DNA of 64,000 bases from Nitrospiraceae bacterium (GCA_020356065.1 CP070632.1:58665-122664), one strand, 5' to 3'. Positions 38,736-57,597 are shown, counted from the first letter of the stretch. The notes: generated from the letters alone by a model not told the origin. Program-made: numbers and translations.

Positions 38736-39893
38736 TCATAGATGTGAGATGAGGTCCCTTTTGTATACAGAATAAAATGCAAAAGGAACAGTAATAACCA
38801 TGCCCAGCAACACGGTTCCCATAATAACCTCGATGAAAGGTCCGGCGGAAAAGATAAAACGCAGGGGTACATGATCTGCCTGAATAACGGTCACGATGAG
38901 TGCAATAGTCTGTCCTGCAATGGAACCAAGGAGTGTTATCCAGACTGTTCTGAAAGTAAGTATCTTGAGAATGATATTCTGTGCAGTCCCCAGTGTATAT
39001 ACTGTTGATATTTCGGATTTTCTGGCGTCGAGGTTAATATAGGTGCTGATCATGATACAGAAGGCTATCAGAATAAATGCTATGGTGTACAGGGCCTTCT
39101 GATACGTTTCCAATGTTGAATCTACCTCTTTCTCAGCCGTATCACCCCGGTATGCATCAACAGTGTTTAACTGACTGCTGTATTCATTAAGCAGTGATTT
39201 CAGTTGTTCATAAGATGGCAGGGAAGCGGGGAACAGCCGTATCTCATTAATACGCCCTGAGTGACCTGTAATGTCCTGCAGGACAGAGAGTGGTAAAAAA
39301 ACAGATGCGTCTTCAATCCCTCCTGTTGTAGGGATGATTCCGGCGACTGTATACGTCCCGGAGCCGATCATGACTGTATCATTCATTACTTTTCCCAATT
39401 TATCAGAAGCAACTTTACCTAGTATGACCTCATTATCCCTGATCGAATATTCTGAAAATGGATAAGAGTAAACATTTGAAAACTCTATTCCGGTAACCGG
39501 TATCTTTTTGCCGTCTACCTGCAGTCTTAATGTGAATCTGGGTTCAGCATAACGAAGGTGTGAAAAGAACTTTTGTTTAATATCGTTGAAGAGTGAAAGT
39601 GGATAATACCGCCCTTTAAAATTTGCCGTTACAAGATCAGACGAGTCTGTACCTTTGGGTATGAGTATCAGGGATGGTCCGATATAATCGATCCTGTTGT
39701 TGACAGAGCTCTTCTTGGCCTTACCCAGAAGATCGAGCGATACAGGCAGTGCGACCAGCAAGGATACAAGTATGACATTAATGATAAAAACCGCTTTACG
39801 GCCTGTGAGCTCCTGCCATGAAAGCCAGAGACTGAATGGGGCAGACAGTAATGCTGATTTACCGATTGTTGGTTCCGTTTGTGAATTTTCCAT
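38736..39893 (-). CDS. ABC transporter permease, FtsX/MacB/LolE-like
   Basis: N-terminal transmembrane helix, large periplasmic domain, and three C-terminal transmembrane helices of the FtsX fold. Confidence 0.65.
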   Translation of the reverse strand: MENSQTEPTIGKSALLSAPFSLWLSWQELTGRKAVFIINVILVSLLVALPVSLDLLGKAKKSSVNNRIDYIGPSLILIPKGTDSSDLVTANFKGRYYPLSLFNDIKQKFFSHLRYAEPRFTLRLQVDGKKIPVTGIEFSNVYSYPFSEYSIRDNEVILGKVASDKLGKVMNDTVMIGSGTYTVAGIIPTTGGIEDASVFLPLSVLQDITGHSGRINEIRLFPASLPSYEQLKSLLNEYSSQLNTVDAYRGDTAEKEVDSTLETYQKALYTIAFILIAFCIMISTYINLDARKSEISTVYTLGTAQNIILKILTFRTVWITLLGSIAGQTIALIVTVIQADHVPLRFIFSAGPFIEVIMGTVLLGMVITVPFAFYSVYKRDLISHL

Positions 39894-40539
39894 TCTGGAG
39901 GTGCAGTACTTTTTGAGCGTAGGCAGCTACTTCTTCTTCATGAGTCACGATTATAACCGTATGACCACTGCTGTTCAGCTCTTTGAAAAGAGACATGACT
40001 TCCCGGGTCATGGCAGGGTCAAGATTTCCGGTAGGCTCATCAGCAAGGATAATATCCGGGTTGTTTATCACACTTCTGCATAAGGCGACCCTCTGTCTCT
40101 CCCCCACACTGAGTTCAGAAAAGTTATGTTCCAGCCTGGCTCCTAGACCGAACCTCTGCAGCAGCTCAGAGGCCCTTTCATTGGCTTTTTTCCTCGATTT
40201 TATGGTGAGCATGGCAGGTACGGAAACATTGTCCAGTGCGCTCAGGTAGGGTATGAGATTGAACGTCTGAAACACAAACCCTATCTCCCGAAGCCTGAGA
40301 CCAGCCCTGTAGGAAGGAGTTGTATCATACATGTTTTTGCCATTTAAAAGGACTTCTCCTTCTGACGGGTTTAAAAGCGCGCCGATGATAAACAGCAGGG
40401 TACTTTTTCCGCTGCCGCTTGGTCCCACTATTGACAGGAACTCACCTTTTTCTACCTTCAGATTAATGTCTGTCAGCGCTGCCACCTGCTCCTTTTTATT
40501 ATTGATAAAGTCTCTTGCTACATTTTTAAGTTCCAGCAT
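39859..40539 (-). CDS. ABC transporter ATP-binding protein (LolD/MacB-type)
   Basis: Walker A 'GPSGSGKST', signature 'LSVGERQRVALCR', Walker B 'ILADEPTGNLD'. Confidence 0.85.
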   Translation of the reverse strand: MLELKNVARDFINNKKEQVAALTDINLKVEKGEFLSIVGPSGSGKSTLLFIIGALLNPSEGEVLLNGKNMYDTTPSYRAGLRLREIGFVFQTFNLIPYLSALDNVSVPAMLTIKSRKKANERASELLQRFGLGARLEHNFSELSVGERQRVALCRSVINNPDIILADEPTGNLDPAMTREVMSLFKELNSSGHTVIIVTHEEEVAAYAQKVLHLQNGKFTNGTNNR

Positions 40540-40540
40540 A

Positions 40541-41638
40541 TTATTCCTCTCTTAACAGTCTCGTAGGATCAAGTCTGGTCACAAACCATGAAGGAAATGC
40601 TGAGGCCAATAAGGCGATAACCAGTGATGCAGATACAAAGTGTGGTAAATAATCCCATGAAGGTATGAGGCCAATGCGCATGAAGGTCTTTCCAAACCAG
40701 GACATAAACGGGACGCTCAGGATATGACCGAGCAGTGCCCCAATGATCGAAGACAATACCGCTATGGTAATATTTTTAAAGATAATTTTCCCCGGTGTAA
40801 ATCCTATGCTGAGTAAAAGGCCTATCTCCCGTTCACCTTTGTGCAGCATATAGAAGATAAGAAAGACAATACTTCCAACAACCAGCACCGTACCTGTGAT
40901 CCATAACAGCGTAGAGTACTGTTGCATGATGGCATTAATCTGGGTCTGTGCCTTGGCCATGCCGTCAACAGTAATAGCCATCGTCCCGGGCAGGGTATTT
41001 TCAACCTCACCGGCAAAACCGGCCACGTCCAGTTTGCACCAGCAGCCGCCCATGTTAAGGGCATTAATTTTACCTGGTTTATCAAGGATATTCTGTGCTG
41101 CACCTAACGGCATGAAAATGGCCATGTCATAACCCTTTGGCGGGGGATCAAGCACCCTGGCAATCCTGAATGAATTTCCCCTGATATCCAGTGCATCTCC
41201 TTTTTTAAGACCAAGGACAGATGCAGCGCCTTTGCCAATGGTGATAGACTGGGAATCCGTATATCCATAGCGGGGATTATTTACCGTGCGTCCGACAATG
41301 ATAAGGTCATTGCCCTGAACATTTATATTTCCGTATAACCAGGGCTGAATTTTTCCGGCATGTCTGCCCACCGGAGATTGTTTTATGCGGTCACCATAAT
41401 CATCAGGCATGACCTCCGGGCCGTATTTCATTGAATAAAACGATTCCAGGTCAGTCCCCTGTGGAACGACGAGCATCCCTTTACCCAGATCATGTGTCAG
41501 TTCTTTGATCCTGTCTTCTGCTGAACTGTTTAATGAACTTTGAATAACAAGTACAGATATTACAAATGCCATGAGAAGAATGACCAGTGTATGAATCAGC
41601 CATCGGTGTCTGATCTCCTTAAGCATTAACAGAAACAC
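40541..41638 (-). CDS. ABC transporter permease, FtsX/MacB/LolC-like
   Basis: Same architecture as 38736-39893. The permease-ATPase-permease order resembles lolCDE. Confidence 0.65.
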   Translation of the reverse strand: MFLLMLKEIRHRWLIHTLVILLMAFVISVLVIQSSLNSSAEDRIKELTHDLGKGMLVVPQGTDLESFYSMKYGPEVMPDDYGDRIKQSPVGRHAGKIQPWLYGNINVQGNDLIIVGRTVNNPRYGYTDSQSITIGKGAASVLGLKKGDALDIRGNSFRIARVLDPPPKGYDMAIFMPLGAAQNILDKPGKINALNMGGCWCKLDVAGFAGEVENTLPGTMAITVDGMAKAQTQINAIMQQYSTLLWITGTVLVVGSIVFLIFYMLHKGEREIGLLLSIGFTPGKIIFKNITIAVLSSIIGALLGHILSVPFMSWFGKTFMRIGLIPSWDYLPHFVSASLVIALLASAFPSWFVTRLDPTRLLREE

Positions 41639-43120: not shown

Positions 43121-44020
43121 TTACAGGAACACTTTCAGCCTGCTCGGCCCGTTTTCAGCCGTAAGCGGTTTCAAGACAAACCCGGAAACTCCCATCTGGT
43201 TGCATCTGTCAATCACGGTATAGTCAGTTACAGATGTCAGCATGACAATGGGTATATTGCTGTCTGTTGCCCGGATTTTTTTCAACGCCTCATCCCCGGT
43301 CATCTCGGGCATGACAATATCCATAAAGATAATCGCCGGTTTATCTTTTGCATGCATCTCGACTGCCTCTACTCCGTTTGCAGCTTCCACAATATTTTCA
43401 TAACCCAGGGAGTTGAGGAATCTCTTCATGCTGCGCCTGATAAACTTTGAATCATCAACAACCAGAATCTTTTCACCTGTCTGTATTTTGGGAGCATCCT
43501 TTGCCTCGCCTGCTTTGGAGTCGATCATAAGAAGGTTAAAATAGAACCTGCCCACATCATCAATATGGACTGGTACGGAAATGATTTCCCGAACATTTTC
43601 CAAAAGCGACTTCATGTTTTCAGTGTTAAGAATAAAATAAGGTGGCTCAAACTGTATGCCAAGTCTTTGCGTTTCAAGGCACTGTGTAGCATTTCCGATT
43701 GCGGTGTTGCCCCACTCGGCCAAGGCAGACTGCATCTCTTCATTTATTTCAGGCAATTCGTCTGATTCATTGAGTATATTAAACCTGAGGCGGTTGCCGA
43801 TGGCAAGAGCAGTTTCGACATAATGATGTATAAGAATAACCATTTCAAGGTTGCCGTGAGTTTTGGCTGCAATAGCATATCCCTTAAATCTGAAATCCTC
43901 TACGTTATCTGTAAATGCTTCACCTACATGCGCCTTGAGATGAGCCATTACCTCCAGGCTATTAATCGTTTCATCAATAAACGGTTTCAGCATGTTTGTT
44001 TTGATCTCTGTAGCTATCAT
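43121..44020 (-). CDS. CheC/CheX-like phosphatase domain fused to a CheY-like receiver domain
   Basis: C-terminal REC 'ILVVDDSKFIRRSMKRFL...IIFMDIVMPEMTG...LKP'. The N-terminal 150 aa resemble the CheC/CheX fold. Confidence 0.55.
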   Translation of the reverse strand: MIATEIKTNMLKPFIDETINSLEVMAHLKAHVGEAFTDNVEDFRFKGYAIAAKTHGNLEMVILIHHYVETALAIGNRLRFNILNESDELPEINEEMQSALAEWGNTAIGNATQCLETQRLGIQFEPPYFILNTENMKSLLENVREIISVPVHIDDVGRFYFNLLMIDSKAGEAKDAPKIQTGEKILVVDDSKFIRRSMKRFLNSLGYENIVEAANGVEAVEMHAKDKPAIIFMDIVMPEMTGDEALKKIRATDSNIPIVMLTSVTDYTVIDRCNQMGVSGFVLKPLTAENGPSRLKVFL

Positions 44021-44461
44021 ATGATCTCCTTTTCATTTAAGTTCTTCTATTCCCTTCCAATAAAGGAACTGTATAAACAGACTATTATTATATCGGCAGG
44101 ATTATCAATAACTTTACTGACATGTAATAATAAACGACAGAATATGGTCTGAATAAACTTTATTTATAACTTCAAAAAGTCAATGAAGTCCTGCCTGCTG
44201 CGAAATTATTGATAGGAGGGGAAAAGCGAGGATTTATGTTCTTATTAGAAAACAGTGACTCTTAGATCGGAGTTATCATCATGTGCCATTCTTGATACTG
44301 ATTATAATTTGATGTTTTCCAGGTCATCTTCAGGTTTTATCATCTCCAGTGATTTTCAATTTAGGTCAGAAATGTAAAGTTATCTGACTCAAATACTGTA
44401 TAATGAAAAATGAAATACTTTTTACGAACGAATTATATTATACAGTGAAGGAGGATATGAA

Positions 44462-44857
44462 ATGAGTTACCATTTCACAAAAAAACTTGACACTTCATAT
44501 GATGAAGCTATTAGCAGGGCCACAGAAGAGTTGAAAAAGGAAGGATTTGGGATTCTGACAGAGATCGATGTAAAAGAGGCCCTTAAGAAAAAACTTGATG
44601 TGGACTTCAGGAAATATAAAATCCTTGGTGCATGCAATCCCTCTTTTGCATATCAGGCACTGCAGGCGGAAGATAAAATAGGGACCATGCTTCCCTGTAA
44701 CGTGATTGTTCAGGAGACGGATGACGGCAAAATTGAAGTTTCAGCCATTGATCCGATTGCTTCGATGCAGGCTATTGATAACCCGTCTCTTGGTGATATT
44801 GCCAGAGAGGTCAGAGAGAAGTTAAAAAAGGTTATAGATAGTATTCAATCCACATAA
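44462..44857 (+). CDS. DUF302 family protein
   Basis: Small α/β protein whose pattern matches DUF302. Extended -10 'TGTATAAT' at about 44395-44403. Confidence 0.55.
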   Translation: MSYHFTKKLDTSYDEAISRATEELKKEGFGILTEIDVKEALKKKLDVDFRKYKILGACNPSFAYQALQAEDKIGTMLPCNVIVQETDDGKIEVSAIDPIASMQAIDNPSLGDIAREVREKLKKVIDSIQST

Positions 44858-45030
44858 AGACCATTATTTCTTTATGTCAGCCCGAAGTCCGTAATCGGGC
44901 ATACAGAAGAAACTTATGAATAGATTGGATTTTGTGCCTCAGGCCTTTCGTGCCGGAAGGCAGACTGCCGGAATGATGAATAAAAAACTTTTTCTTAAAA
45001 TCTAAATGACGCCATTTATAGTTAATAATA

Positions 45031-47568
45031 ATGATTAATAAGCGTGACAAAAACAGGCAGAATAAAGAAGCCTGCCCATTGCCTGAACGGGATAAGAAAG
45101 CAGATCCCAGGGGGTCTTCCCATGCTAAAAGAATAGACCTCCCGGTTACCGGTATGTCCTGCGCTGCCTGTTCGGCCCGGGTCCAGAAGTCACTTTCAGG
45201 ACTGAAGGGTGTCAAGTCTGCAATGGTTAATCTTGCTGCTGAAAGAGCAACAGTCTTTTACGATCCGGAAGAATCATCCGTAGATGATGTAGTTTCTCAT
45301 ATTAAGGACCTGGGTTATGGAGTTTCTGTTTCAAAAGTTACCATACCCATAAAGGGTATGACCTGTGCTGCCTGTGTTAAAAGGGTCCAGGATGCTCTCC
45401 AGTCTTTGGACGGAGTTTTGAATGCAACAGTAAATCTGGCCACAGAAAAAGCCACTGTTGAATATTCTCCAGCTCAGGCAGGGATGAGAGACTTCAAGAA
45501 TGCAATAAAGGGAACGGGATATGATATTGTTGAGTTTAAGCAGGGGGAGGATATTGTTGAAAAAGAAAAAAGAGAACGGGAAACAGCGTATAAGAAACTC
45601 AGATCCAGGGTTATTATCGGTGCTTCCTTAACCGTTCCTGTATTTCTTCTGGTATTCTGGGACAGACTTGGACTAAATTTAATATTATCCATTCCAATGC
45701 AAACCAATTTTTTTCTGCAGTTTCTGATTCAGACACCTGTTCAGTTCTGGGCAGGGTGGCAGTTTTATACGGGTGCGATCTCTGCTGCCCGGCATAGAAC
45801 CACAAACATGAACACGCTTATTGCTGTTGGTACGTCCGCAGCGTATATGTACAGTGTAACCGCTACTTTTATTCCATCTATATTCGAAATAAAGGGATAC
45901 TCCGCACATGTATATTTTGACACAGCAGCTACCATCATAGTTCTTATTCTTCTTGGTCGGCTCTTCGAAGCGCAGGCAAAGGGCAAGACCTCAGAAGCCA
46001 TTAAGAAACTGGCCGGCCTGCAGTCAAAGACCGCCCGTGTTGTTCATAACGGTGAGGAAAAAGATATCCCGATTGAAGAGGTTGAAATAGGAGACATCAT
46101 TCTGGTGAGACCGGGTGATAAAATTCCGGTTGACGGGGTAATCAGGCAAGGATACTCGTCAGTGGATGAATCAATGATATCTGGTGAGTCCATTCCTGTT
46201 GAGAAAAAAACAGGGGATGAAGTAATCGGGGCCACGATCAATAAAACCGGTTCTTTTAAGTTTGAGGCAACAAAGATCGGAAGGGACACTATGCTCTCGC
46301 AGATCATACATATGGTCCAGGAGGCCCAGGGATCAAAACCCCCCATAGCCAGACTTGCAGATAAGATCGCTTCGGTTTTTGTACCGGCGGTCATGGTTAT
46401 TGCAACGCTGACATTCATGATCTGGTTCATTTTTGGACCTGCACCTTCATTTACATATGCGATTCTGAATTTCATAGCGGTCATGATCATAGCATGTCCA
46501 TGTGCACTTGGACTGGCAACACCCACATCGATAATGGTGGGGACCGGTAAAGGTGCTGAGCAGGGCATTTTGATCAGAGGAGCAGAAGCCCTGGAGACAC
46601 TACATAAAGTAACGTCAATCGTCTTTGACAAAACTGGCACGCTGACTAAAGGGAAGCCGGTTGTTACCGATATTATAGGTTTAAACGGGAATGCTGATGA
46701 AGTTCTTTTCTTTGCTGCATCTGCGGAAAAAGGGTCTGAGCATCCTCTTGGTGAAGCAATTGTAAATAAGGCAAAAGATGAAAGTATCCGGCTGACAGAT
46801 CCGGTTGATTTTTCAGCTTTCCCCGGTCATGGGATAACAGCTGGCGTTGACGGTAAAACAGTATATCTTGGAAATCTCAACTTCTTGAAAGATCAGAATG
46901 TCGATATATCAAATTTATCTCAGGTTGCCGGGGAAATGTCAGGACAAGGGAAAACTCCTATGTATGTAGCAGTGGATGGGCAGGCAGCTGGGCTGATAGC
47001 TGTAGCAGATACATTGAAAGAAAATTCAGCACAGGCAGTGACCGCTCTCAGGAAATCAGGGATTGAAACAGTGATGATAACAGGGGATAACAGGCGGACT
47101 GCCGACGCAATCGGTAAGCAGGTCGGGATTGACAGGGTGCTATCTGAAGTTCTTCCTGAAGACAAGGCGGCCGCAGTAAAAAAATTTCAGTCTGAAGGCA
47201 GAATTGTTGCCATGGTAGGTGACGGAATTAATGATGCTCCAGCACTTGCACAGGCAGATGTCGGCATTGCTATCGGTACAGGAACTGATGTTGCGATGGA
47301 GGCCTCGGATGTTACATTGATCAGGGGTGATCTCAAGGGAGTTGTTGAGTCTATTGCGCTGTCAAAGGCAACAATCAGAAATATCAAGCAGAACCTTTTC
47401 TGGGCATTTGCTTATAATACGGTGTTGATTCCTGTTGCTGCAGGCTTACTGTTTCCGTTCTTCGGGATTTTACTTAACCCTATGTTCGCAGCTGCGGCCA
47501 TGGGTATGTCATCAGTTACGGTTGTCTTAAATGCGTTAAGATTGAGAAGTTTTCAGTACACGATCTAG
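45031..47568 (+). CDS. copA: Copper-translocating P1B-type ATPase with two N-terminal HMA domains
   Basis: 'GMSCAAC' and 'GMTCAAC'. CPC motif 'ACPCALG'. 'DKTGTLT' phosphorylation site. 'GDGINDAP'. Confidence 0.9.
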
Positions 47569-47740
47569 GGTATTATAATTTCCTATTATATTCGATAGCT
47601 TCCCCCCGTTCTCTCACAGCATAAAATCATTCTGATTTATGTTAATTCTCAGCTATAAAGGTCTGTTTAAGATGAAAGAAATGATGTCCGATAATAATAT
47701 ATGAAGAAGAATTTAAAATTATCGAAAGGGATCAAATCGC

Positions 47741-49363
47741 TTGCTTAACCTGACATTAAAAAATATTGCTCACAAAGAAGACTTTTCTGCACAGAAAGAT
47801 GTTTCATTGAGAGATGTAACGGAATTAATGAATAAAAATGGAAAAGGTGTTGTTGTCATCCTTGATGGTAAGAAAATTGCGGGCATTCTTACCGAAAGGG
47901 ACATAGTGAAATGCCTTCACAAGGGAATAGATCTGGATACTAATGTTACGGGTTTTGCCGATAAAAAACTTGTTGCGACAAGAGGAGACAGAACAGTCGG
48001 ATATGCACTATCCCTTATGATAGAAAATAATATCAGACGTATAATCATTACAGACGGGTTCCTGGATGAATTTATTGGAGTTGTTACACAGCAGGATTTG
48101 CTGAAATATCTTGAAGAGGATTTTTACCGAGCAACCATCAAAGTCAAACATATCATAGACCGATTGGGGCATTTGTTTAACGTGGAACCTGATGACTCAC
48201 TGAAAAGTGTTCTGGATCAGATGGTTGGAAATCAAATAAGTGCGGTTGCCATCATCAGTGACGGTGTAGCTGAGGGAATTATCTCTGAGAAAGACATATT
48301 GCGATTGGCCTGTGAAAATATATCTCTTGACAGCAGAGTTCATGAACATATGTCAACCCCGGTGATCAATGTACATCTCGATAATGCGCTTGTCGACATT
48401 GTGACCATAATGAATGAATTGCAGATCAATAGAGTTATCGTACATGATGACAGCGGTATCGCTACCAATGTCATTACCACGAGAGATGTGTTGAAAAGCC
48501 TGGAGAGTGATTATAGTGCATTCCTTGAGCGCAAACTGAGGAGTGCCAAGGAAATTCTTAACCTTTTGCCGGAAATGATGGTAGAAATAGCTGAAACCGA
48601 GTCTGACCAGTTAATTGTGTGGGCAAACGATAAGGTGACGAGGAAGTTCGGCATGGACCTCCTTGACCAGCCGATAACTGAGTTTCTGCCCAGGGAGCAG
48701 TGGCATAAGATTTACACAACACTGAGAGACTCGGGGAAAGTAGAAAATATAAAAATGAAGAAGGGAGACAGCATTCTTGAGCTTTCCGGGTTTTATCTGA
48801 ACGTTGACAGTAATCAGAATAATGGAAAAATCCAGCTCATTATCAGAGATATCACGGATGATATACGATTGTCTACTTCTGACCCCTTGACAGGTTTATA
48901 TAACAGACGGTTTGTGAATGAATATTTAATAAAGGAGATCGCACGATTTAAAAGGTCGAACGAATCTTTTTCACTTGTGATGTGTGACATTGATAACTTC
49001 AAGGAGATAAATGACACGTACGGCCATTTGGCCGGTGATATAGTTCTTAAGTCATTGGCACAGCTTGTCACTCCTACGTTAAGGCAGCTTGATATCTTCG
49101 GCAGATACGGCGGCGATGAGTTTGTTTTAATTCTGCCCGGGACGGACAGTACATTTGCCTCAAATGTAATTGACAGACTGAGGATAAAAATAGAAAGCAT
49201 TCCAATAGCTCTTCCCGCAGGAGTAAAAAAATCTATAACTGCCAGTTTTGGTGTTGCAACATTTCCGATGGACGGAGAATCTTCAGATGATCTGCTGATC
49301 AAGGCCGATGAGCGATTATATAAGGCGAAGAGTCTTGGAAAAAACAAGGTTGTCTTTGTATGA
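47741..49363 (+). CDS. Diguanylate cyclase: 4xCBS - PAS - GGDEF, with I-site
   Basis: 'RYGGDEF' active site preceded by an RxxD I-site 'RQLD'. CBS pairs at the N-terminus. Confidence 0.85.
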   Translation: MLNLTLKNIAHKEDFSAQKDVSLRDVTELMNKNGKGVVVILDGKKIAGILTERDIVKCLHKGIDLDTNVTGFADKKLVATRGDRTVGYALSLMIENNIRRIIITDGFLDEFIGVVTQQDLLKYLEEDFYRATIKVKHIIDRLGHLFNVEPDDSLKSVLDQMVGNQISAVAIISDGVAEGIISEKDILRLACENISLDSRVHEHMSTPVINVHLDNALVDIVTIMNELQINRVIVHDDSGIATNVITTRDVLKSLESDYSAFLERKLRSAKEILNLLPEMMVEIAETESDQLIVWANDKVTRKFGMDLLDQPITEFLPREQWHKIYTTLRDSGKVENIKMKKGDSILELSGFYLNVDSNQNNGKIQLIIRDITDDIRLSTSDPLTGLYNRRFVNEYLIKEIARFKRSNESFSLVMCDIDNFKEINDTYGHLAGDIVLKSLAQLVTPTLRQLDIFGRYGGDEFVLILPGTDSTFASNVIDRLRIKIESIPIALPAGVKKSITASFGVATFPMDGESSDDLLIKADERLYKAKSLGKNKVVFV

Positions 49364-49528
49364 AGCAAATCGCACCCAATCGTACCTCTTGTTACATCAT
49401 ATCAAGCTGAGATTCTTCTGTGATAAGAGTCCATGTATATCACTGTGGTACCGGGCTAAACATATTCATCGAAAATGCCGATTTATAATCAGGAGTTAAA
49501 ATGAAATGCCATTAATACGGAAGGGACT

Positions 49529-51535
49529 ATGTTAGAAGAGGATAAAAGACAATTTGCCCGGTACCGAAAACAGTCATTATGTGATGTAAGAATAGGGTCA
49601 GAACTCCATAAAGGAAAAGTCGTTGATTACTCAAACGGTGTTGGGATACTCATAAAAAAAGTTCCGGAACTGGTAAAAGGTGCCATTGCTGAAATAGAAA
49701 TTTTAGACTATGAAATTAAATTCAGCGGCGAAGTGGTGTGGACAGAAGATTTTGGATATCAGCTCAGAGTCGGATTCAGAAGGCTCAACAACCTGAGGGG
49801 CAATCTTAAACATTACAGACTGATTGACATCCTTTTAGGTCTCAGCAAGAGCAGAAAAACGGGAATACTTGAGATAATCGTAGGTTCGACAGTAAAAAAG
49901 ATATATATTGACAATGGACTGAAGATTTTTGCTGTATCTACAAATACAAATGACCGCCTCGGAGAGTATCTTTTAACACAGGGTAAAATTACCCTTGAAG
50001 AATATAATCAGGCCTCTTACCTCGTTGAAAAAAAGGGACAGCGACTGGGTCAGGTTCTTATCGATCTTGGTTATTTAAAACCGAGTGATCTTGCCCCGTC
50101 AGTCCAACATCAGGTTGAAGAGATTATTATGGGCCTCTTTAATATAGATGAAGGCATATTTGAATTTAAAGAAGTCCCGCTCCCAACGGATGAACCAATA
50201 AAACTCCAAGTCAGCACGCCAAATCTCATATACAAGGGAATCAAGAGAATTAACAGCTTTCCCATGATAGATAAGATGTGTCCACCATTAGATACAGTAT
50301 TTAATCTGGCCAAGGACCCGCTCCCGCTGTTTCAGTCGCTCGACATTTTGGATGCCGATAAAAAAGTCCTATCGTATGTGAACGGAATCCATCCACTAAA
50401 AGGGATATTAACCCTTTCTCATACAAGTAATTTTGAGACACTTAAATCTGTTATCGCCCTTATGACCATAGGACTCATTACTATCAAGGGAGAAAATGAC
50501 ACTCCTGTTAAACTTCCCCTTGAAGTGATCTTTGGCGAACCTGACAAAACTCAACCGGTGGAACCAGATGAAGAGACACAGGAAGAGGTAACGACTGATA
50601 TTGGTGCAGGAGCTGCTGAAATGACAGACACTCAAACGAATATTGTTGAGAAACAGGAGAACGTTAAAGAACCCACAAAAGAGGAAGAGTCGGCAGTACC
50701 AGCATTGCCTGAAGCTCCCGCGTCTGAAATAACTGATGAAGATTCACATGACGATGAATCGGCTGATGTGAATGCAGAAGCCACTGAATGGGCAGTTGAA
50801 TATACGAATATGGTCGAGAATCAGGAGAACATGAAAGCGTCTGATGAGGAGGAATTGGCGATATCAACACCGCCTGAAGTTCCTGTTTCTGAAATAAATG
50901 AAGATACACATTCAGAAGAGATGGCTTCATTACGCGCAGAGAGTGCTGAAGAGACAATCGAACATGTGAAAACAAGTGAGAGCATCAGTAAAATGAATGT
51001 GATATCAGAGTCACACCTGTCTTTTATAGATGAGCATGATGAGATACAGGCTGAGAATATTACTGAACAGACAGATGAAAAACAATCCATTACATACACA
51101 GCAGGTTATGTCAATGAAACATCCGGAGTTCCTGAACCTGCTGCCATGGAGTCAGAAATGGCGGCTGCAGCAGGAGAGGAAGCATACGTACAGATGAATG
51201 ATATGACGTCTGAAAACACATCAACTGACGTGCTGCCGAACACTGTTCTGCAAAATGACGAAAGTGCTGACACTGCAGCAAAACCGAAGTCCAGAAAAAT
51301 ACTCATCATCTCAATTGTTATGATAATCATTCTTGTTGGAGCCATTGTTCCGATCATTTATGAATATATTACAATGCCATTATCTCCACCTGCCGTGACA
51401 ACTATAAAAAAATCTGAGTCTTTATCACCTGTGAACAATGAGGCATCAGAAAAAGTGAATGCAGGAATGCCGCAAGACAAATCATCATTCCCTGTCTTTC
51501 GGGAGGATGCAATAAAAAAGTTTCTCAACGAGTAA
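49529..51535 (+). CDS. PilZ - DUF4388 - acidic repeat linker - transmembrane helix protein (putative c-di-GMP receptor)
   Basis: 'RQFARYR' (RxxxR) plus 'DYSNGVG'. DUF4388-like 'LIDILLGLSKSRKTGILEI'. E/S/T-rich repeat. Transmembrane helix 'ILIISIVMIIILVGAIVPII'. Confidence 0.6.
   Translation: MLEEDKRQFARYRKQSLCDVRIGSELHKGKVVDYSNGVGILIKKVPELVKGAIAEIEILDYEIKFSGEVVWTEDFGYQLRVGFRRLNNLRGNLKHYRLIDILLGLSKSRKTGILEIIVGSTVKKIYIDNGLKIFAVSTNTNDRLGEYLLTQGKITLEEYNQASYLVEKKGQRLGQVLIDLGYLKPSDLAPSVQHQVEEIIMGLFNIDEGIFEFKEVPLPTDEPIKLQVSTPNLIYKGIKRINSFPMIDKMCPPLDTVFNLAKDPLPLFQSLDILDADKKVLSYVNGIHPLKGILTLSHTSNFETLKSVIALMTIGLITIKGENDTPVKLPLEVIFGEPDKTQPVEPDEETQEEVTTDIGAGAAEMTDTQTNIVEKQENVKEPTKEEESAVPALPEAPASEITDEDSHDDESADVNAEATEWAVEYTNMVENQENMKASDEEELAISTPPEVPVSEINEDTHSEEMASLRAESAEETIEHVKTSESISKMNVISESHLSFIDEHDEIQAENITEQTDEKQSITYTAGYVNETSGVPEPAAMESEMAAAAGEEAYVQMNDMTSENTSTDVLPNTVLQNDESADTAAKPKSRKILIISIVMIIILVGAIVPIIYEYITMPLSPPAVTTIKKSESLSPVNNEASEKVNAGMPQDKSSFPVFREDAIKKFLNE
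50641..50960 (+). repeat. Degenerate tandem duplication of about 162 bp (54 aa) inside the acidic linker of the PilZ-DUF4388 gene
   Basis: 'IVEKQENVKEP...PEAPASEITDEDSHD' against 'MVENQENMKAS...PEVPVSEINEDTHSE'. Confidence 0.6.
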
Positions 51536-51583
51536 CCGGTAAATTAATATATTTTTATTCGTTTATAGAATTATTTATCATTA

Positions 51584-51702
51584 CCCCTCTGTATCTCCCT
51601 TCGGAATCGGGTCGTACCGGCTTCGCAATGAGTCACATCGAACTGGCACAGAGGGGGTTTGAATTCTCCCCTTAACGAGCCGGTCCGACCCGATTCCGAG
51701 AC
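51584..51702. repeat. Highly structured intergenic element with nested inverted repeats: a roughly 25-bp imperfect pair (13-bp perfect core CGGAATCGGGTCG / CGACCCGATTCCG) plus CCCCTCTGT / ACAGAGGGG
   Basis: Seen directly. Located between convergent genes. No ORF. Confidence 0.4.
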
Positions 51703-51801
51703 CTGCTTAGGGATGGCCTTGGCGCGGTGATCTTTTGAAATTTCAAGTCACTAAAAACCCTTACCATAATGGCAGGTATTTTTAGTGTTCAACGTACATT
51801 A

Positions 51802-52713
51802 TTAATTAATGATCGCAAGAAGTTGATTCGAGGTCTTTTTATCGATATTCTTTATTTTGAGGTATATATCCATGGCCTTATCTTTATTGTCGTTCTTTGC
51901 ATATGTAATGCACAGACCCGTCAGGGCATCTAAATGCCCTGGATCAAGACGTAAGGCATTGTTAAACGCATCAATTGCCTCATCATACCTTTTAAGAAAA
52001 AAGTACGAATACCCGAGACCATTATGAAACTCCGGGATGTCCGGGGACAGCCGTGTGGCTTTTTCAAGGTATCCCCGGGCCTCTGAAGGTTTATCCATCT
52101 TCAGAAGGACCATTCCGAACCATGCGTTAAGGTCAGGGTGATCCGGCTGTTGTCTTATTTCCGCAGTTATAATATCAAACGCAGCAGTATAATCATTATT
52201 CTTGACAAGAGTCTCAATTTCTTTCAGGTTCTCCTTTAATCGCACATCTCTGACATTTTTGTCCTCATCTTCAGATGCAATGGAAACAGCTTGGTCAAGG
52301 GCAGGGGATGCAGATGATCTGTCCCCAGGCTCTTTCATTTTCACAGTGGATGAATCGGAATAAAGCTTCACGATCCTTTCCTCTTTTATATATGCTTTCA
52401 TCACAACAGCACTGGGTAGTTTTGATTCGACCGAACTGAAGAATTTCTCAACCAAATTATAATCCGTAAATTTACCCAGTCTGACAGAGTAGTATTTGCC
52501 GATTTTCTCTATTCTTAAATGGTCCAGTTGAGTTTCATCCAAAGTATTTGCAATCGAATCAAACTGCTCCTGTGCATCGTTCACATTTGAAAAGCTGCTT
52601 ACCTGAATTGTATGAAACAGGTTCGATGAATAAACTTTCAGAGGTAACAGCATTAAGAACAAGAATAAGGTTGCATATCCTGCTGCAGATACATTAAAGA
52701 CATTTTTTCGCAT
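51802..52713 (-). CDS. SPOR domain + TPR repeat protein with N-terminal signal-anchor
   Basis: SPOR-like 'IQVSSFSNVNDAQEQ...YYSVRLGKF'. C-terminal TPRs 'AWFGMVLLKMDKPSEARGYLEKATRLSPD'. Confidence 0.6.
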   Translation of the reverse strand: MRKNVFNVSAAGYATLFLFLMLLPLKVYSSNLFHTIQVSSFSNVNDAQEQFDSIANTLDETQLDHLRIEKIGKYYSVRLGKFTDYNLVEKFFSSVESKLPSAVVMKAYIKEERIVKLYSDSSTVKMKEPGDRSSASPALDQAVSIASEDEDKNVRDVRLKENLKEIETLVKNNDYTAAFDIITAEIRQQPDHPDLNAWFGMVLLKMDKPSEARGYLEKATRLSPDIPEFHNGLGYSYFFLKRYDEAIDAFNNALRLDPGHLDALTGLCITYAKNDNKDKAMDIYLKIKNIDKKTSNQLLAIIN

Positions 52714-53020
52714 ATAAAATCCTTTTTTCCCTTACGTTCCCGATGCTAGTGTTCTTATCGGAACATACATATGAAAACTTAAAATTATATTGTGAACGAA
52801 GTGACGTTTTTTATCATTGATTATACATGGTGCACAATGTTCAAAGGAATGCGTACATGTCATTCGATATACGAACTTACGAGCTGGAAGGAAATCCTTC
52901 TTGTACCTGGTAACGAATGTCTTGTAGCATATATAATCACCCTCAATGAACGCAGGGTCAGCGCATGCTCCAACATCCCTAAATCACTGATTTAAAACGA
53001 TGATGTGTCTACCCACAGCA

Positions 53021-54019
53021 TCAATTACCGAAAAGGTTGGGGAAATAAAAAGTATCATATTTTGTAACAAGGCTTTTAATATTCAGGTACTGAAGATCTT
53101 TAGACCTCTTCTCGCCAAATCCCAGTTTTTCAAAATCCATCATTCCGCCGGACACATGACATTCATTGCAGGCAATACTCACTTCTTTTCTTGCTATGTT
53201 TTTGTGGAACAGCTCAAATGAGTCCTTTTTCTCTTTATTGGACAGAGAGCTCTCCTTTGACATATATTCTCTGGCCTTGTCAGAATCTGCTGTATTCATC
53301 AATATTTTTTTCTTGCCGCTTTTTTTTGAAAACACGGCTATTCTTGATATGAGTGCGCCGTTTGCCTCCACAGGTTCATCTGATTTGTGTGAATCCGGAG
53401 ACATTTTTAGCATCTCCTGAATCGCCTTATTTGAATTGTGGCTTGAACGGTCTGTGATCGTTCCATAGGGTTCACCCACATATTCAAAGTGCTCCGGATC
53501 ATTCCAGTCATACTGGAGCTGTTTCAGATCCTCTTTCTTAAGGTGGCAGACTTCACACAACATGAAACCAGTGTGCATATTCAGCAGTGCCCTTACTTTT
53601 TTATTGTTGCTGTGAGGGTAAAGAGGGTGACAGACCCTGCATGACGATTTATCATCCAGCTTTGTAATGGCAAACCGCTCAAGCTTATGATAATTAACTT
53701 TGTATCCCGGGTACAGTGCATCTATTTTATCCCTGTCCTCAGTGTGACACCCGGTTGTGCAATTGACCGCGGTTTCACCGGTATGCGGTATCTGTGTGAC
53801 TGTAGGATGACACTTCCTGCAATCAACCGTGCCGTGGTCCGATGCAAGATGAATTTCTTCATCTATATGCATGACTTTAAATGTGTCAGGTTTCTCCATT
53901 CTGACCAGTCCCGGGTATTTATGACAGGTAAGGCAGCCCCCGTGGTCAACGGCAACACTTGTAACCGGAACTATCAATATAGTTAATAGATTTACTAACA
54001 GAAGCTTAATATTTCTCAT
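53021..54019 (-). CDS. Periplasmic multiheme cytochrome c (five CxxCH plus one CxxxCH)
   Basis: Signal peptide. Heme motifs CLTCH, CRKCH, CRVCH, CEVCH and CNECH, plus 'CTTGCH'. Confidence 0.75.
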   Translation of the reverse strand: MRNIKLLLVNLLTILIVPVTSVAVDHGGCLTCHKYPGLVRMEKPDTFKVMHIDEEIHLASDHGTVDCRKCHPTVTQIPHTGETAVNCTTGCHTEDRDKIDALYPGYKVNYHKLERFAITKLDDKSSCRVCHPLYPHSNNKKVRALLNMHTGFMLCEVCHLKKEDLKQLQYDWNDPEHFEYVGEPYGTITDRSSHNSNKAIQEMLKMSPDSHKSDEPVEANGALISRIAVFSKKSGKKKILMNTADSDKAREYMSKESSLSNKEKKDSFELFHKNIARKEVSIACNECHVSGGMMDFEKLGFGEKRSKDLQYLNIKSLVTKYDTFYFPNLFGN

Positions 54020-54166
54020 GTCATCAATTTTAAAAGGTATTACATAAGGAATCTCTGTATCGATACGAGCACATGAACGATACTATTCATTTTCTATCAT
54101 ATTATCGGGGCGTTGTAAATTAAAAAAAACTGATACAGATATAAATCTGAAAGATGTGCTGTCGGG

Positions 54167-54709
54167 TTAGGGGCTGGATACGGGTGTATGTGCGGCGGAA
54201 TCCTGTATGTCTATAATTTTTACATCAAAGTACAGTGTTTTGCCGGCGAGAGGGTGGTTGTAATCAAGAATGACTGTATTGTCTTTAACTTCCCTGACAG
54301 TTAATGGGATGACCCTGCCTCTCGCAGTTCGTCCCTGAATTTGAGCACCTGCCTTACGGGAATCTTCCGGTATTTTATCCTTTGGAACTTCACGGATTGC
54401 ATCTTCACGTACGTTACCGTAACCATCTTCAGGTTTAACAACAACATGTTTGCTTTCGCCTTTTTTCATACCGGAAAGTTCTTTCTCCAGCCCCGGCACC
54501 AACTGACCCTTTCCATGAATAAAGGACATGGGAGTTGGTCCGTCATTTGTATCATCCACATTTGTACCATCCACTTTGAGTGTATATTCAATCACAACAT
54601 ATTTCCCATCCGTAATGATTGGGATAATTTCCACTCCGGTTGTCTCAGCTAGAACCGAGGCTATAAAAAAAGCGGTGCATAAAAAAAGAATGACAACAAT
54701 CTTATTCAT
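54167..54709 (-). CDS. FKBP-type peptidyl-prolyl cis-trans isomerase, secreted
   Basis: Signal peptide plus an FKBP domain: 'YTLKVDGTNVDDT', 'GKGQLVPGLEKEL' and 'LAGKTLYFDVKIIDI'. Confidence 0.75.
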   Translation of the reverse strand: MNKIVVILFLCTAFFIASVLAETTGVEIIPIITDGKYVVIEYTLKVDGTNVDDTNDGPTPMSFIHGKGQLVPGLEKELSGMKKGESKHVVVKPEDGYGNVREDAIREVPKDKIPEDSRKAGAQIQGRTARGRVIPLTVREVKDNTVILDYNHPLAGKTLYFDVKIIDIQDSAAHTPVSSP

Positions 54710-54891
54710 GAAACACTGGCCCTCTTATTCTGCCATACGTTAACATGTACCGGATACCTATCTAAAAGTAACATATGGCAGGCACATATGCCAACCCGAT
54801 ACATAACTGGGATTATAATTTTATTTCATATATAATTCTATGACCAATATTTTGATACAAAGTAAACATTTTCATACTGGAGGTCCATACA

Positions 54892-55386
54892 ATGGCTGAA
54901 TATTCATTTGATGTAGTAAGCAGGGTCGATCTTCAGGAGGTTTTAAATGCGATCCAGCAGGCAATGAAGGAAATCAAACAGAGATTTGACTTCAGAGGCA
55001 GTAAGAGCAACCTGGAACTGGATCAGGGTAACAGCCTGATAACGATAACGTCTGATGATGAGTATAAACTGAAAAGTGTAATCGATATCCTTGAGAATAA
55101 GCTCATCAAAAGAAAGGTGCCGGTCAAGGCAATCAGCTACGGTAAAGTAGAGGATGCCGCCGGAAGCACAGTGAGACAGGTTGCTACTCTTCAGCAGGGC
55201 ATCCCGACAGAGAAAAGCAAGGAAATTGTCAAAATAGTGAAACATTCCAAACTGAAAGTACAGTCCGAGATCCAGAAAGACCAGCTCCGGATCAGGGCCA
55301 AGAAAAAAGACGATCTGCAGGCAGTTATTGCATTGTTAAAGGAAAAAGATCTGGGTATTCATATAGAGTTTGTGAATTACAGGTGA
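54892..55386 (+). CDS. yajQ: YajQ-family (UPF0234) nucleotide-binding protein
   Basis: 164 aa with the YajQ fold pattern. Family members bind c-di-GMP in xanthomonads. Confidence 0.75.
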   Translation: MAEYSFDVVSRVDLQEVLNAIQQAMKEIKQRFDFRGSKSNLELDQGNSLITITSDDEYKLKSVIDILENKLIKRKVPVKAISYGKVEDAAGSTVRQVATLQQGIPTEKSKEIVKIVKHSKLKVQSEIQKDQLRIRAKKKDDLQAVIALLKEKDLGIHIEFVNYR

Positions 55387-55479
55387 GATAGGGAATGGAT
55401 AATAGGTGACAGGTCATGGGTCATTGTCTTTTTTTATAACCGATAACCCATAATCCGTATTTTTTGTATAATACCTTTT

Positions 55480-57597
55480 ATGAGTGTATGGAATGATATA
55501 AGGCATGATTTTAAAACTGTTTTTACCATGGATCCTGCTGCCAGGAGCAAGGTTGAGGTCATTATCTCCTATTCAGGATTTCATGCTATAGTTTTTCACA
55601 GGTTAAATCATTACCTCTGGAATGCCAGGATACCCATACTACCCCGTTTTTTTTCGCAGGTAGCAAAGATATTTACCGGTATAGAGATACATCCTGCTGC
55701 AAAGATTGGCCGTGGGTTTTTCATAGACCACGGGATGGGTGTGGTGATAGGTGAGACTACGGAGATAGGAGAAAACTGTCTGCTGTATCAGGGAGTGACT
55801 CTTGGGGGTACGGGCAAGGAAAAGGGAAAGAGACATCCTACCTTAAAGAATAATATCGTTGTTGGCACCGGAGCAAAAGTGCTCGGGGCGATTACCATTG
55901 GAGACAACGTTAAAATAGGGGCCAATTCGGTTGTGCTTCATGATGTTCCCAAAGACTCCATTGTGGTAGGAGTGCCTGGAAGGGTCATTAAGAAAAAGGT
56001 TGTGAAGATGTTTGAAGATGGTCCGGTTGAGATGCTTGACCATGTTCATATTCCTGACCCGGTCGAAGATAAGTTTGAAAAGCTGAATAACATTATTCAT
56101 GAACTTGAAAGGAGAATCAGCACATTGGAAGGCAAGGGAGAGACCATAAAGGTTTATAACACAATGAGCGGAAAGAAAGAGGAGTTCATTCCCTTCACTC
56201 CGGGCAAGGTCAATATGTATGTGTGCGGGATTACCGCCTATGACGTATGTCACCTCGGACATGCAAGGAGCGCTATCGTGTTCGACATTATTAAGAGATA
56301 TCTGAGATACAGCGGTTATGATGTGACCCATGTGAGAAATATTACTGACATTGATGATAAGATTATAGCCCGATCAGCACAGGAGGGCATTTCCACTGAG
56401 GAAGTCGCCAAGAAATACACTGATGAATATTACAATGACATGGAGCTTCTGGGTGTCAGCAGGGCTGATATTGAGCCAAACGCTACTGACCATATCCATG
56501 AAATGGTAGAAACCATTAAAGGACTTATTGAAAAGGGATACGCATATCCGGTTGATGGTGACGTTTATTTTGAAGTGAGCAGGTTCTCCGGTTACGGGAA
56601 ACTGTCCGGGAAAAATATCGATGATCTCAAGGCAGGAGCCAGGGTCGATATTGATGAGAGAAAGAGGAGCCCTCTTGATTTTGCACTCTGGAAATCATCT
56701 AAGGAAGGTGAGCCATTCTGGGAAAGCCCATGGGGCAAGGGAAGGCCGGGCTGGCACATTGAGTGCACTGCCATGTCTTCAAAATATCTTGGGACAAGCT
56801 TTGATATACACGGCGGCGGAGCAGACCTCATATTCCCCCATCACGAAAATGAGCTTGCGCAGAGCGAAGCCTATTCGGACGAGCCTTTCGTGAAATACTG
56901 GATGCATAACGGTTTTATTACAGTGGACAAGGAAAAGATGTCTAAATCTCTCGGCAATTTCTTCACAATCAAGGAGATCTTAAGCAGATATGAACCCGAA
57001 GTAGTCAGATATTTTCTGCTCTCCGCTCATTATAGAAGTCCGATAGAGTTTTCTGACGTGCAGCTCAATGAAGCAGAGCTGTCGATTGACAGATACTATA
57101 CCACTGTCCTGCGGATCGATGATTTTCTGCAGTCAGAAAGTAATATTGACAGGATCACATCATCCGCTGAACTTGAAGACATTATGTCCGGATTCAGGCA
57201 CAAGTTCCATAATGCAATGAATGATGATTTTAATACTGCATCAGCACTGGGAATTATTTTTGAACTTATCAGAGAGGTAAACAGGTTTCTTGATTCCAAA
57301 CCTGCAGGTCAAAGGGCCAGGGACTTTGTTAAGCAGGCTTATGATCTGCTTGCTGAAATAGGCGGGGTGCTGAATATTTTTAATAAAACACCTGAAGAGT
57401 GGTACCGGGCGCTTATGAAAGTCAAGAAGATAGACATTACAGAAGATGATCTTCTCAAAAAAATTGATGCACGGCAGAATGCAAGGAAGAACAAGGACTG
57501 GTCTGCTGCGGATGATATAAGAAATGAACTCGCAGCAAAGAATATAATCCTTGAAGATAAAAAAGACGGGACTTCCTGGAAGATCAAGGTGGGTTAG
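55480..57597 (+). CDS. cysE-cysS: Fusion of serine O-acetyltransferase (CysE) with cysteinyl-tRNA synthetase (CysS) in one 705-aa ORF
   Basis: N-terminal 'IHPAAKIGRGFFIDHGMGVVIGETTEIG...LGGTGKEKGKRHP' matches the SAT hexapeptide domain. From about residue 225, 'MYVCGITAYDVCHLGHARS' (HIGH) and 'KMSKS' mark a class-I CysRS. Confidence 0.8.
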   Translation: MSVWNDIRHDFKTVFTMDPAARSKVEVIISYSGFHAIVFHRLNHYLWNARIPILPRFFSQVAKIFTGIEIHPAAKIGRGFFIDHGMGVVIGETTEIGENCLLYQGVTLGGTGKEKGKRHPTLKNNIVVGTGAKVLGAITIGDNVKIGANSVVLHDVPKDSIVVGVPGRVIKKKVVKMFEDGPVEMLDHVHIPDPVEDKFEKLNNIIHELERRISTLEGKGETIKVYNTMSGKKEEFIPFTPGKVNMYVCGITAYDVCHLGHARSAIVFDIIKRYLRYSGYDVTHVRNITDIDDKIIARSAQEGISTEEVAKKYTDEYYNDMELLGVSRADIEPNATDHIHEMVETIKGLIEKGYAYPVDGDVYFEVSRFSGYGKLSGKNIDDLKAGARVDIDERKRSPLDFALWKSSKEGEPFWESPWGKGRPGWHIECTAMSSKYLGTSFDIHGGGADLIFPHHENELAQSEAYSDEPFVKYWMHNGFITVDKEKMSKSLGNFFTIKEILSRYEPEVVRYFLLSAHYRSPIEFSDVQLNEAELSIDRYYTTVLRIDDFLQSESNIDRITSSAELEDIMSGFRHKFHNAMNDDFNTASALGIIFELIREVNRFLDSKPAGQRARDFVKQAYDLLAEIGGVLNIFNKTPEEWYRALMKVKKIDITEDDLLKKIDARQNARKNKDWSAADDIRNELAAKNIILEDKKDGTSWKIKVG

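Follow-up and report, generated by a model that had tools for sequence, protein, structure and literature searches.

By gene neighbourhood, the conserved partner of a membrane-anchored PilZ-PATAN protein of a Nitrospiraceae bacterium is not the diguanylate cyclase encoded directly upstream of it, but an exported SPOR-TPR protein encoded convergently downstream. The stretch of DNA that we analysed (GCA_020356065.1 CP070632.1:58665-122664; 64,000 nucleotides, hereafter the window) carries the cyclase gene, open reading frame (ORF) A, at 47741-49363 (+), the receptor-like gene, ORF B, at 49529-51535 (+), and the SPOR-TPR gene at 51802-52713 (-). A reading made from the DNA alone, called here the sequence-only reading, had placed ORFs A and B on the same strand 165 bp apart, coordinates that proved exact, and had proposed that they form a dedicated cyclase-receptor module for cyclic di-GMP (c-di-GMP); this proposal fails on gene neighbourhood, since the two genes are not conserved neighbours and two related loci (L084, L085) keep the cyclase without the receptor. 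Networks of c-di-GMP typically comprise many cyclases and few understood effectors, and almost none of the effectors are known, to our knowledge, in the Nitrospirota, an environmentally important and mostly uncultured phylum. That the receptor stays with the SPOR-TPR gene points to a possible connection, as yet uncharacterised, between c-di-GMP and the cell wall of these bacteria.

Gene neighbourhood of the receptor

We found 104 relatives of ORF B, nearly all of them in the Nitrospirota/Thermodesulfovibrionia; the loci of relatives compared with the window are labelled L001 to L094, and P0031 and P0329 are relative proteins. A SPOR or SPOR-TPR protein occurs as a neighbour or a fusion in 12 of the 14 membrane-anchored members, and in none of the 66 cytoplasmic or other/distant relatives. 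Its homologues hold the same convergent position as in the window in L001, L003, L004, L006, L007, L009, L013, L016, L017, L089 and L092. The protein of the window is 303 amino acids (aa) long, with a signal-peptide-like N-terminus, a SPOR domain at residues 34-104 and TPR repeats at about residues 170-300 (Pfam), and comparison of the N-termini revealed an export signal in all orthologues. In L010 the two partners are joined in a single 792-aa ORF, in which a complete SPOR domain, about 50% identical to that of the window, follows the transmembrane (TM) helix and the conserved tail motif described below. The possibility that this fusion is a palindromic assembly artefact was rejected, as no large inverted repeat was found.

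The same pairing is seen at greater distance. The SPOR-TPR protein of L089 (66% identical) is encoded opposite a convergent PilZ-PatA_N gene (604 aa), in a backbone unlike that of the window, and those of Nitrospira (L092/L093; 46% identical) are convergent with an unannotated 192-aa ORF (L092 5945-6523, -; same coordinates in L093). This ORF, from a Nitrospira metagenome-assembled genome (MAG), encodes a minimal PilZ-TM-tail protein whose PilZ domain is 39% identical to that of the window (E = 3e-20) and whose tail has two copies of the motif. It is flanked by genes for an AAA_16 ATPase and a PocR-GAF-GGDEF protein upstream on its own strand, and by VanY, alanine racemase and DivIVA genes on the opposite side. 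The SPOR-TPR homologue of L094 (39%) has no receptor and lies beside DegP and PG_binding_1 genes, and the more distant SPOR-TPR homologues are found among peptidoglycan genes (VanY, Alr, DivIVA, PG_binding_1, DegP). The association between the receptor and SPOR-TPR genes is well supported by comparative genomics.

The cyclase, for its part, lies in a backbone of the order DUF302-CopA-cyclase-cytochrome-FKBP-YajQ-CysS. In L084 and L085, whose cyclases are 74-75% identical to ORF A, this backbone is intact, the cyclase abuts the cytochrome gene, and the receptor and SPOR-TPR genes are both missing. The colinearity obtained with blastn (window 44391-49359 with L084 2580-7500, and window 53028-56000 with L084 7677-10745) brackets a 3.7-kb cassette at 49360-53027, consisting of the receptor and the convergent SPOR-TPR gene and absent from both L084 and L085. 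These two genes have been gained or lost together. Because the receptor is absent from intact cyclase backbones, we consider the cyclase to be part of the backbone and the receptor to have come or gone in the two-gene cassette. Other cyclase orthologues are followed by YajQ-CysS-U32 peptidase genes (L088, a complete genome) or sit between DnaG and UbiA (L086).

Seen from the receptor, the upstream gene is equally variable. In the three nearest relatives it encodes a PilB-like ATPase with MshEN, T2SSE and REC domains (L001), the C-terminus of BipA (L002) or an unknown protein on the opposite strand (L003), and in other membrane-anchored members a PilZ singlet, an M15 peptidase, a phospholipase C, MiaA/NUDIX, a flavodiiron protein, an HD-GYP protein or SdhB. 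The cyclase-receptor pair is kept only in L004, a Thermodesulfovibrionia MAG that is the closest genome-level relative of the window and is syntenic with it over the whole DUF302-to-YajQ stretch. In about 3 of 13 independent membrane-anchored lineages (window/L004, L016 with a true HD-GYP and L089 with a degenerate one), the gene directly upstream of the receptor does serve c-di-GMP turnover, the genes being varied and non-orthologous; this is more than expected (P = 0.0003-0.006) from a per-gene background of 1-3%, these loci having about 1.2 GGDEF matches per 100 kb. GGDEF-EAL proteins also adjoin the cytoplasmic relatives of L035 and L037, and the GAF-GGDEF gene of L092 is two genes upstream. 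A local pairing of cyclase and receptor could therefore exist in particular lineages.

Architecture of the receptor

In ORF B (668 aa; exact-sequence look-up found no identical sequence on record), a PilZ and a PATAN/DUF4388 domain are followed by a disordered, acidic linker, a single TM helix and some 55 aa of tail, and the protein is predicted to have its N-terminus in the cytoplasm and its C-terminus in the periplasm. A hidden Markov model scan bears out the N-terminal PilZ and DUF4388 segments proposed earlier, with scores of 32.5 bits for PilZ (PF07238; residues 5-85, cut-off 22.5) and 68.6 bits for DUF4388 (PF14332; cut-off 25), the latter being named PatA_N, or PATAN domain, in current Pfam. 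The PilZ beta-barrel spans 49541-49804 (residues 5-92) and contains both motifs that the sequence-only reading had picked out. The first, RxxxR (RQFAR, residues 7-11), is highly conserved, as 83 of the 85 relatives compared keep R7 and 84 keep R11; S35 and G37 of the second, DxSxG (residues 33-37), are nearly invariant in the same set. As a phmmer search of the PilZ segment alone (residues 1-96) against the PDB matched no PilZ chain, the assignment rests on Pfam and on fold comparison. An AlphaFold2 (AF2) model of residues 1-330 has a predicted local distance difference test (pLDDT) score of 89.9 and a predicted template-modelling score (pTM) of 0.86.

The PATAN domain (49796-50251, residues 90-241), after which Pfam finds no response-regulator receiver (REC) domain in ORF B, contains a four-helix insertion of the MshEN_N type at 49955-50113, visible in the same AF2 model. 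The MshEN consensus is a pair of motifs of 24 residues each, RLGxx(L/V/I)(L/V/I)xxG(L/V/I)(L/V/I)xxxxLxxxLxxQ, separated by a 5-residue spacer (Wang 2016, PMC5013675). ORF B has this two-motif, four-helix arrangement (MshEN/GSPII; PF05157, NF053729), with EKKGQ as the spacer; motif II, RLGQVLIDLGYLKPSDLAPSVQHQ (residues 172-195), agrees at 11 of 11 relaxed positions, and motif I, RLGEYLLTQGKITLEEYNQASYLV (residues 143-166), at 8 of 11, the terminal Gln being missing, so that the full two-motif consensus is not reached. Residues 141-201 align without gaps to residues 7-67 of MshE, and the alignment to PilF has an E value of 3.9e-8. The first RLG and the last Q of the paired motifs are conserved across the family (85 relatives). 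Binding of c-di-GMP by this insertion is possible but uncertain.

We did not find a link between the helical insertion of PATAN and MshEN stated in the searchable literature, where Han et al. noted an additional GspE_N annotation for some DUF4388 proteins and, in Synechocystis, binding of the pilus motor PilB1 by PATAN domains (bioRxiv 10.1101/2021.06.11.447907). The PilB-like ATPase with MshEN, T2SSE and C-terminal REC domains that is encoded directly 5' of a receptor orthologue in L001 (215-2308, +) has a counterpart in the same place in L009 (4605-6776, +), and the extreme N-terminus of both is weakly matched by positions 48-74 of the Pfam DUF4388 profile. The PATAN profile itself therefore holds an MshEN-like segment.

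A helical subdomain (residues 244-320) and a junction motif, PVKLPLEVIFGEP (residues 326-338), follow at 50258-50542, as delimited by alignment and AF2, and are common to every class of the family. Beyond them lies the acidic linker (50534-51286, residues 336-586), with a net charge of about -55; residues 330-590 contain 68 D/E and 13 K/R, and in the full-length AF2 model pLDDT is below 50 at 330-417 and 441-586. AF2 bears out the disordered acidic linker that had been proposed, and hydropathy and AF2 agree on the single TM helix. The description of the linker as a long acidic E/S/T repeat holds for its acidity and not for the repeat: the segment is of low complexity, without a tandem repeat at the DNA level, and contains one diverged internal duplication of about 55 aa. 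The linker is interrupted by a short predicted helical island at 50765-50845 (residues 413-439, EATEWAVEYTNMVENQ), which is conserved only among the closest relatives, being present in P0031 and P0329 and twice in L004, and which may be a linear interaction motif.

The TM helix (51290-51373, residues 588-615; AF2 pLDDT 70-81) is preceded by KPKSRK, in line with the positive-inside rule, and is followed by the predicted periplasmic tail (51374-51532, residues 616-668). The sequence-only reading had also proposed a short extracytoplasmic tail; we put its length at about 55 aa and add that its last residues carry a motif conserved in the family, FPVFREDAIKKFLNE (51488-51532, residues 654-668), of consensus (F/Y/L)PxFR(D/E/N)(D/E)(A/L)xx(K/N)(L/F)L and core PxFR(D/E)(D/E)AxxKxL, which AF2 predicts to be helical at residues 657-667. 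This motif occurs, sometimes in two copies, in 11 of 12 membrane-anchored members. The TM helix and tail are specific to the family: used together as a query against 1.84 billion representative proteins, they gave four matches, all from the family of ORF B.

The receptor family and its classes

Every relative shares the PilZ-PATAN-helical module as far as the junction P(V/I)xLP(L/I)E..FGEP and diverges beyond it. The majority class consists of cytoplasmic proteins of about 560 aa in which the junction is followed by a J-domain with its HPD motif and by TPR repeats; a second class has a J-domain, an acidic linker, a TM helix and a tail; and a third, to which the window protein belongs, has the linker, TM helix and tail without the J-domain. 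Pfam finds no DnaJ match (PF00226) in ORF B, whose unstructured acidic segment occupies the position of the J-domain in its relatives. The recruitment of DnaK is therefore impossible for ORF B, unlike for most of its relatives. Membrane-anchored orthologues lacking the J-domain occur in several lineages at 47-79% identity, with the N-terminal module, TM helix and tail motif conserved.

In three loci the tail or TPR repeats are replaced by other C-terminal domains (L012 7965-10532, L015 7986-10190, L008 7998-10400). L012 and L015 share a domain of about 200 aa (…EQFDNN…NWE.FN…ASARIE.GKYYIENK…), and L008 has a different C-terminus of about 250 aa. Because these proteins carry other C-terminal domains, the PilZ-PATAN-J module shows itself as a portable putative sensor head. 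Constant in the membrane-anchored family are the N-terminal, cytoplasmic PilZ domain, the single TM helix, the periplasmic tail with the motif at its end and the SPOR-TPR gene alongside, which together form its core; the PATAN domain with its MshEN-like insertion, the J-domain and the acidic linker vary in their presence and are accessory modules of the cytoplasmic part. All four features that define the proposed family (PilZ, TM helix, tail motif and convergent SPOR-TPR gene) are found in the window, and they recur in L001, L003, L004, L006, L007, L013, L016, L017, L089 and L092. The family is uncharacterised, and ORF B fully fits no characterised family beyond the level of its domains. The MshEN-type motif within DUF4388, the SPOR-TPR partner, the tail motif, and the J-domain and TPR repeats of most relatives are all absent from the sequence-only reading.

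The cyclase and other features of the window

ORF A (540 aa, TTG start; Pfam and NCBIfam) contains four CBS motifs at about residues 5-260, a PAS domain at 286-373 and a GGDEF domain at 379-536. Pfam recognises the four CBS stretches and GGDEF (158.7 bits), in agreement with NCBIfam; the PAS_9 match, at 27.9 bits, barely exceeds its cut-off of 27.0. A motif search located the I-site and active site at 49082-49123, with RQLD (residues 448-451) in the canonical I-site position, five residues before GGDEF (457-461). The GGDEF domain aligns end-to-end with the active cyclases 3ign, PleD (1w25) and WspR (3bre), and the substrate- and metal-binding segments DPLTGLYNRR, DIDNFKEINDTYGH and KADERLYKAK are present in this alignment. 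The sequence of ORF A thus has the features expected of active GGDEF cyclases, GG(D/E)EF, metal and substrate segments and an RxxD I-site, and the protein looks catalytically competent. Pfam, motif search and alignment all confirm the earlier description of a CBS-PAS-GGDEF cyclase with an intact GGDEF and an RxxD I-site. Its orthologous group is large and well conserved (282 clusters at E<=1e-40).

The left edge of the 3.7-kb indel coincides with the 165-bp gap between the two genes (49364-49528, +). We found no terminator-like site in it, and its RNA structure is not unusual (z = +0.72). Scans for sigma-70 promoters and terminators gave counts no higher than in shuffled sequences and are uninformative beyond the missing terminator between ORF A and ORF B. 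Rfam gave no riboswitch or other RNA element in the window at the gathering threshold, and no match at E<=1 over 47400-53100. The intergenic region between ORF B and the SPOR-TPR gene (51536-51801), in contrast, has an unusually stable fold (z = -5.1), made up of a 22-nt inverted repeat (51601-51622 / 51678-51699, spacer 55 nt) and a second, 19-nt hairpin (51749-51787), and is probably a bidirectional terminator. Rfam has no match to the inverted repeat, blastn does not align it to L004, and no second copy of it occurs in the window. The interpretation of this repeat (51601-51699) as the end of a mobile element or a boundary of the cassette was rejected, given its position inside the cassette, between convergent genes, and its single occurrence in the window.

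The window encodes two further PilZ proteins, one of 345 aa with an N-terminal PilZ domain (26542-27579, +) and one of 228 aa with a C-terminal PilZ domain (from 58981, +), the latter followed directly by a ParA/MinD-like ATPase gene (59674-60639). The window thus has several candidate c-di-GMP receptors, yet only one GGDEF gene. A yajQ/DUF520 gene is present at 54892-55386 (+), with counterparts at L088 7763-8293 and L084 9570-10064, and neighbours the cyclase more consistently than the PilZ-PATAN gene does: it is adjacent downstream in the complete genome L088, and lies at a distance of two to three genes in L084, L004 and the window. In two Acidobacteriota loci (L062, L063), YajQ matches are likewise found, 4-5 kb away from PATAN-J genes. 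Proteins of the YajQ family bind c-di-GMP in Xanthomonas, and the cyclase-YajQ pairing may be the older one.

Next to yajQ, a gene at 55480-57597 (+) encodes a 705-aa cysteinyl-tRNA synthetase, extended at its N-terminus by about 230 aa in which there is a hexapeptide-repeat (acyltransferase-like) segment; CysS has the same length in L084, and in L088 it is 483 aa long, without the extension. An exopolysaccharide-like cluster at 32271-41638 includes two family 2 glycosyltransferases (GT2), a TPR protein, a MacB/FtsX-type ABC transporter and two large ORFs without a Pfam match (33801-34904, 367 aa; 35666-37666, 666 aa). A CheX-REC fusion is encoded on the minus strand at 43121-44020. N-terminal methylation motifs are present in two pilin-like proteins (10502-11083 and 11385-12653, +), which indicate that the organism probably has type IV pilus or pseudopilus machinery. 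We found no magnetosome or pilus-motor context in the window, which apart from the exopolysaccharide-like GT2/TPR/ABC cluster is ordinary chromosomal housekeeping DNA.

Possible role of the receptor

We lean towards a reading of ORF B as a bitopic scaffold, probably responsive to c-di-GMP, whose functional partner would be the periplasmic SPOR-TPR protein rather than the cyclase. In this model, c-di-GMP from any cyclase of the cell, the neighbouring one included, would bind the PilZ barrel and possibly the MshEN-type insertion, and binding would change what the PATAN module interacts with; PATAN-REC regulators suggest, by analogy, the motor ATPase of a type IV pilus as one possible partner. 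The disordered acidic linker of about 250 residues would be a tether and not a conformational relay; as such a linker could not transmit a change of conformation, coupling across the membrane would have to occur by tethering or localisation. On the periplasmic side, the tail motif would dock onto the TPR domain of the SPOR-TPR protein. SPOR domains, such as those of FtsN, DamX and DedD, bind denuded peptidoglycan, and the SPOR domain of the partner would likewise bind denuded (septal) peptidoglycan. A cytoplasmic interaction platform under c-di-GMP control would thereby be brought to places where the wall is remodelled, for example the septum or the new pole. Several points weigh against this reading. 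Beyond the gene association, it is one that we infer from domains and predicted structure. The association itself has a Fisher p of about 1.5e-12 (12/14 versus 0/66) that is uncorrected for phylogeny, two membrane-anchored members (L002, L012) have no SPOR-TPR neighbour, the L010 fusion comes from one MAG contig only, and no pilus-motor or division gene adjoins the cassette in the window. The case for c-di-GMP binding is weakened by the second PilZ motif, DYSNG (D33-Y-S35-N-G37), which falls one residue short of the canonical form, (D/N)xSxxG, that 77 of 85 relatives have; by the failures of MshEN motif I at K153 (hydrophobic expected), S163 (Leu) and V166 (Gln, the equivalent of MshE Q32); by the score of residues 143-195 against the NCBIfam "MshE-related c-di-GMP-binding motif" (NF053729), which at 36.6 bits falls just under the cut-off of 38; and by the precedent of PilF GSPII-A, a homologous yet non-binding domain, work on which showed each terminal Gln to be important and a perfect consensus to be no guarantee of binding (PMC12002112).

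The last four points, together with the modest PilZ score and its missing PDB match, could mean that both modules are degenerate and that ORF B does not sense c-di-GMP at all, serving as a structural membrane tether or PATAN scaffold with the SPOR-TPR protein. We consider this unlikely, given that the key PilZ residues are nearly invariant, that the short loop (6 of 85 relatives) is conserved within the clade of the window, which argues for selection on the site, that MshEN motif II is perfect, and that c-di-GMP turnover genes recur nearby. That the cyclase and the PilZ-PATAN protein are a dedicated, co-transcribed signalling pair, the cyclase feeding the adjacent receptor, is in our view similarly doubtful. 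The genes are close, on one strand and without an intervening terminator-like site, the cyclase looks competent, the pair is kept in L004, and unrelated turnover genes precede the receptor in other independent lineages; on the other hand, L004 is syntenic across the whole region and so gives no independent support, cyclase orthologues retain their backbone without a receptor or adjoin YajQ or UbiA instead, the closest receptor relatives have different upstream genes, and two more PilZ proteins and YajQ are candidate receptors within the window. Far less probable is the idea that ORF B is a decaying paralogue, of little function, of a c-di-GMP-regulated J-domain co-chaperone (PilZ-PATAN-J-TPR) that has lost its J-domain. 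The prevalence of the HPD J-domain and TPR repeats among relatives, and the acidic segment in place of the J-domain, would fit such a history, but the ORF is intact, J-less membrane-anchored orthologues persist with their conserved parts, and the minimal PilZ-TM-tail form puts the J-domain outside the conserved core. A more specific elaboration of the scaffold reading would make the PilZ-TM-tail and SPOR-TPR proteins a trans-envelope complex that reads c-di-GMP in the cytoplasm and acts at septal peptidoglycan, a division or pole landmark of the FtsN/DamX or HubP kind under the control of a second messenger; in the variant of the window, the PATAN domain, with a second c-di-GMP site of the MshEN type, would recruit for example a pilus motor. 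We regard so detailed a version as improbable; if true, Nitrospirota would have a previously undescribed class of c-di-GMP effector, one that couples the messenger to the cell wall or divisome directly.

Significance and comparison with known systems

The locus defines a coherent family of putative effectors, in which PilZ, TM helix, periplasmic motif and SPOR-TPR stay constant as the core and the other cytoplasmic modules (PATAN/MshEN-like, J-domain, TPR) can be exchanged. If the scaffold reading is true, c-di-GMP would be linked to peptidoglycan or division sites by a new route, and the "helical insertion" of PATAN would gain a candidate ligand. For annotation, the adjacency of GGDEF and PilZ genes in a single genome calls for caution, as weak evidence of a dedicated pair.

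The closest known kind is that of the membrane-anchored PilZ effectors. Alg44, the alginate co-polymerase of P. aeruginosa, is likewise a bitopic PilZ receptor, but its periplasmic part is a folded membrane-fusion-protein domain in an exopolysaccharide machine, whereas ORF B has a 55-aa tail with a short motif, a SPOR-TPR partner and no adjacent polysaccharide synthase; Alg44 also lacks the PATAN domain and acidic linker. In the N4 exopolysaccharide system of E. coli, the cyclase DgcJ is encoded near the c-di-GMP-binding membrane effector NfrB, which uses an MshEN-type domain (PMC8669469). In our case the cyclase adjacency is not conserved and is known from genes alone, and the conserved partner is non-enzymatic. 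Compared with the MshEN (GSPII) domains of MshE and PilF, ORF B has the N-subdomain only, inserted in PATAN instead of heading a secretion ATPase, and its motif I lacks the equivalents of MshE L25, L29 and Q32 (Y159, S163 and V166).

The PATAN/DUF4388 domain is shared with the PatA-type PATAN-REC regulators (PatA, PixE, PixG, TaxP1), in which PATAN is a protein-interaction module that binds the pilus motor PilB1 and localises to the membrane (bioRxiv 10.1101/2021.06.11.447907). ORF B differs from them in having no REC domain, so that its input would be c-di-GMP via PilZ and not phosphorylation, and in being an integral membrane protein of Nitrospirota rather than cyanobacteria. Fusions of PilZ to DnaJ and to DnaK have been noted in Myxococcus xanthus and are uncharacterised (PMC8316039); they join PilZ to chaperone domains as the PilZ-PATAN-J-TPR majority class does, whereas the window protein is J-less.

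HubP and FimV, which organise pilus and flagellar components at the poles, offer an analogy only: they too combine a peptidoglycan-binding periplasmic element, one TM helix, a long acidic cytoplasmic region and an interaction module, but in mirrored order (with an N-terminal LysM), without sequence homology, and with LysM where our system has SPOR, on a partner protein. With FtsN, DamX and DedD, finally, ORF B shares its predicted single-pass topology, N-terminus in and C-terminus out, and the link to a SPOR domain in the periplasm, of the kind by which septal peptidoglycan is recognised. The tail motif might also bear some resemblance to the essential helix of FtsN. ORF B differs in having a large sensor module on the cytoplasmic side, where those proteins have a short FtsA-binding peptide, and in lying next to no divisome genes; the SPOR domain of the window is on a separate, exported TPR protein, being part of the same polypeptide only in L010. 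That member has exactly the layout of FtsN, DamX and DedD: a cytoplasmic module, a TM helix, a short conserved periplasmic motif and a SPOR domain.

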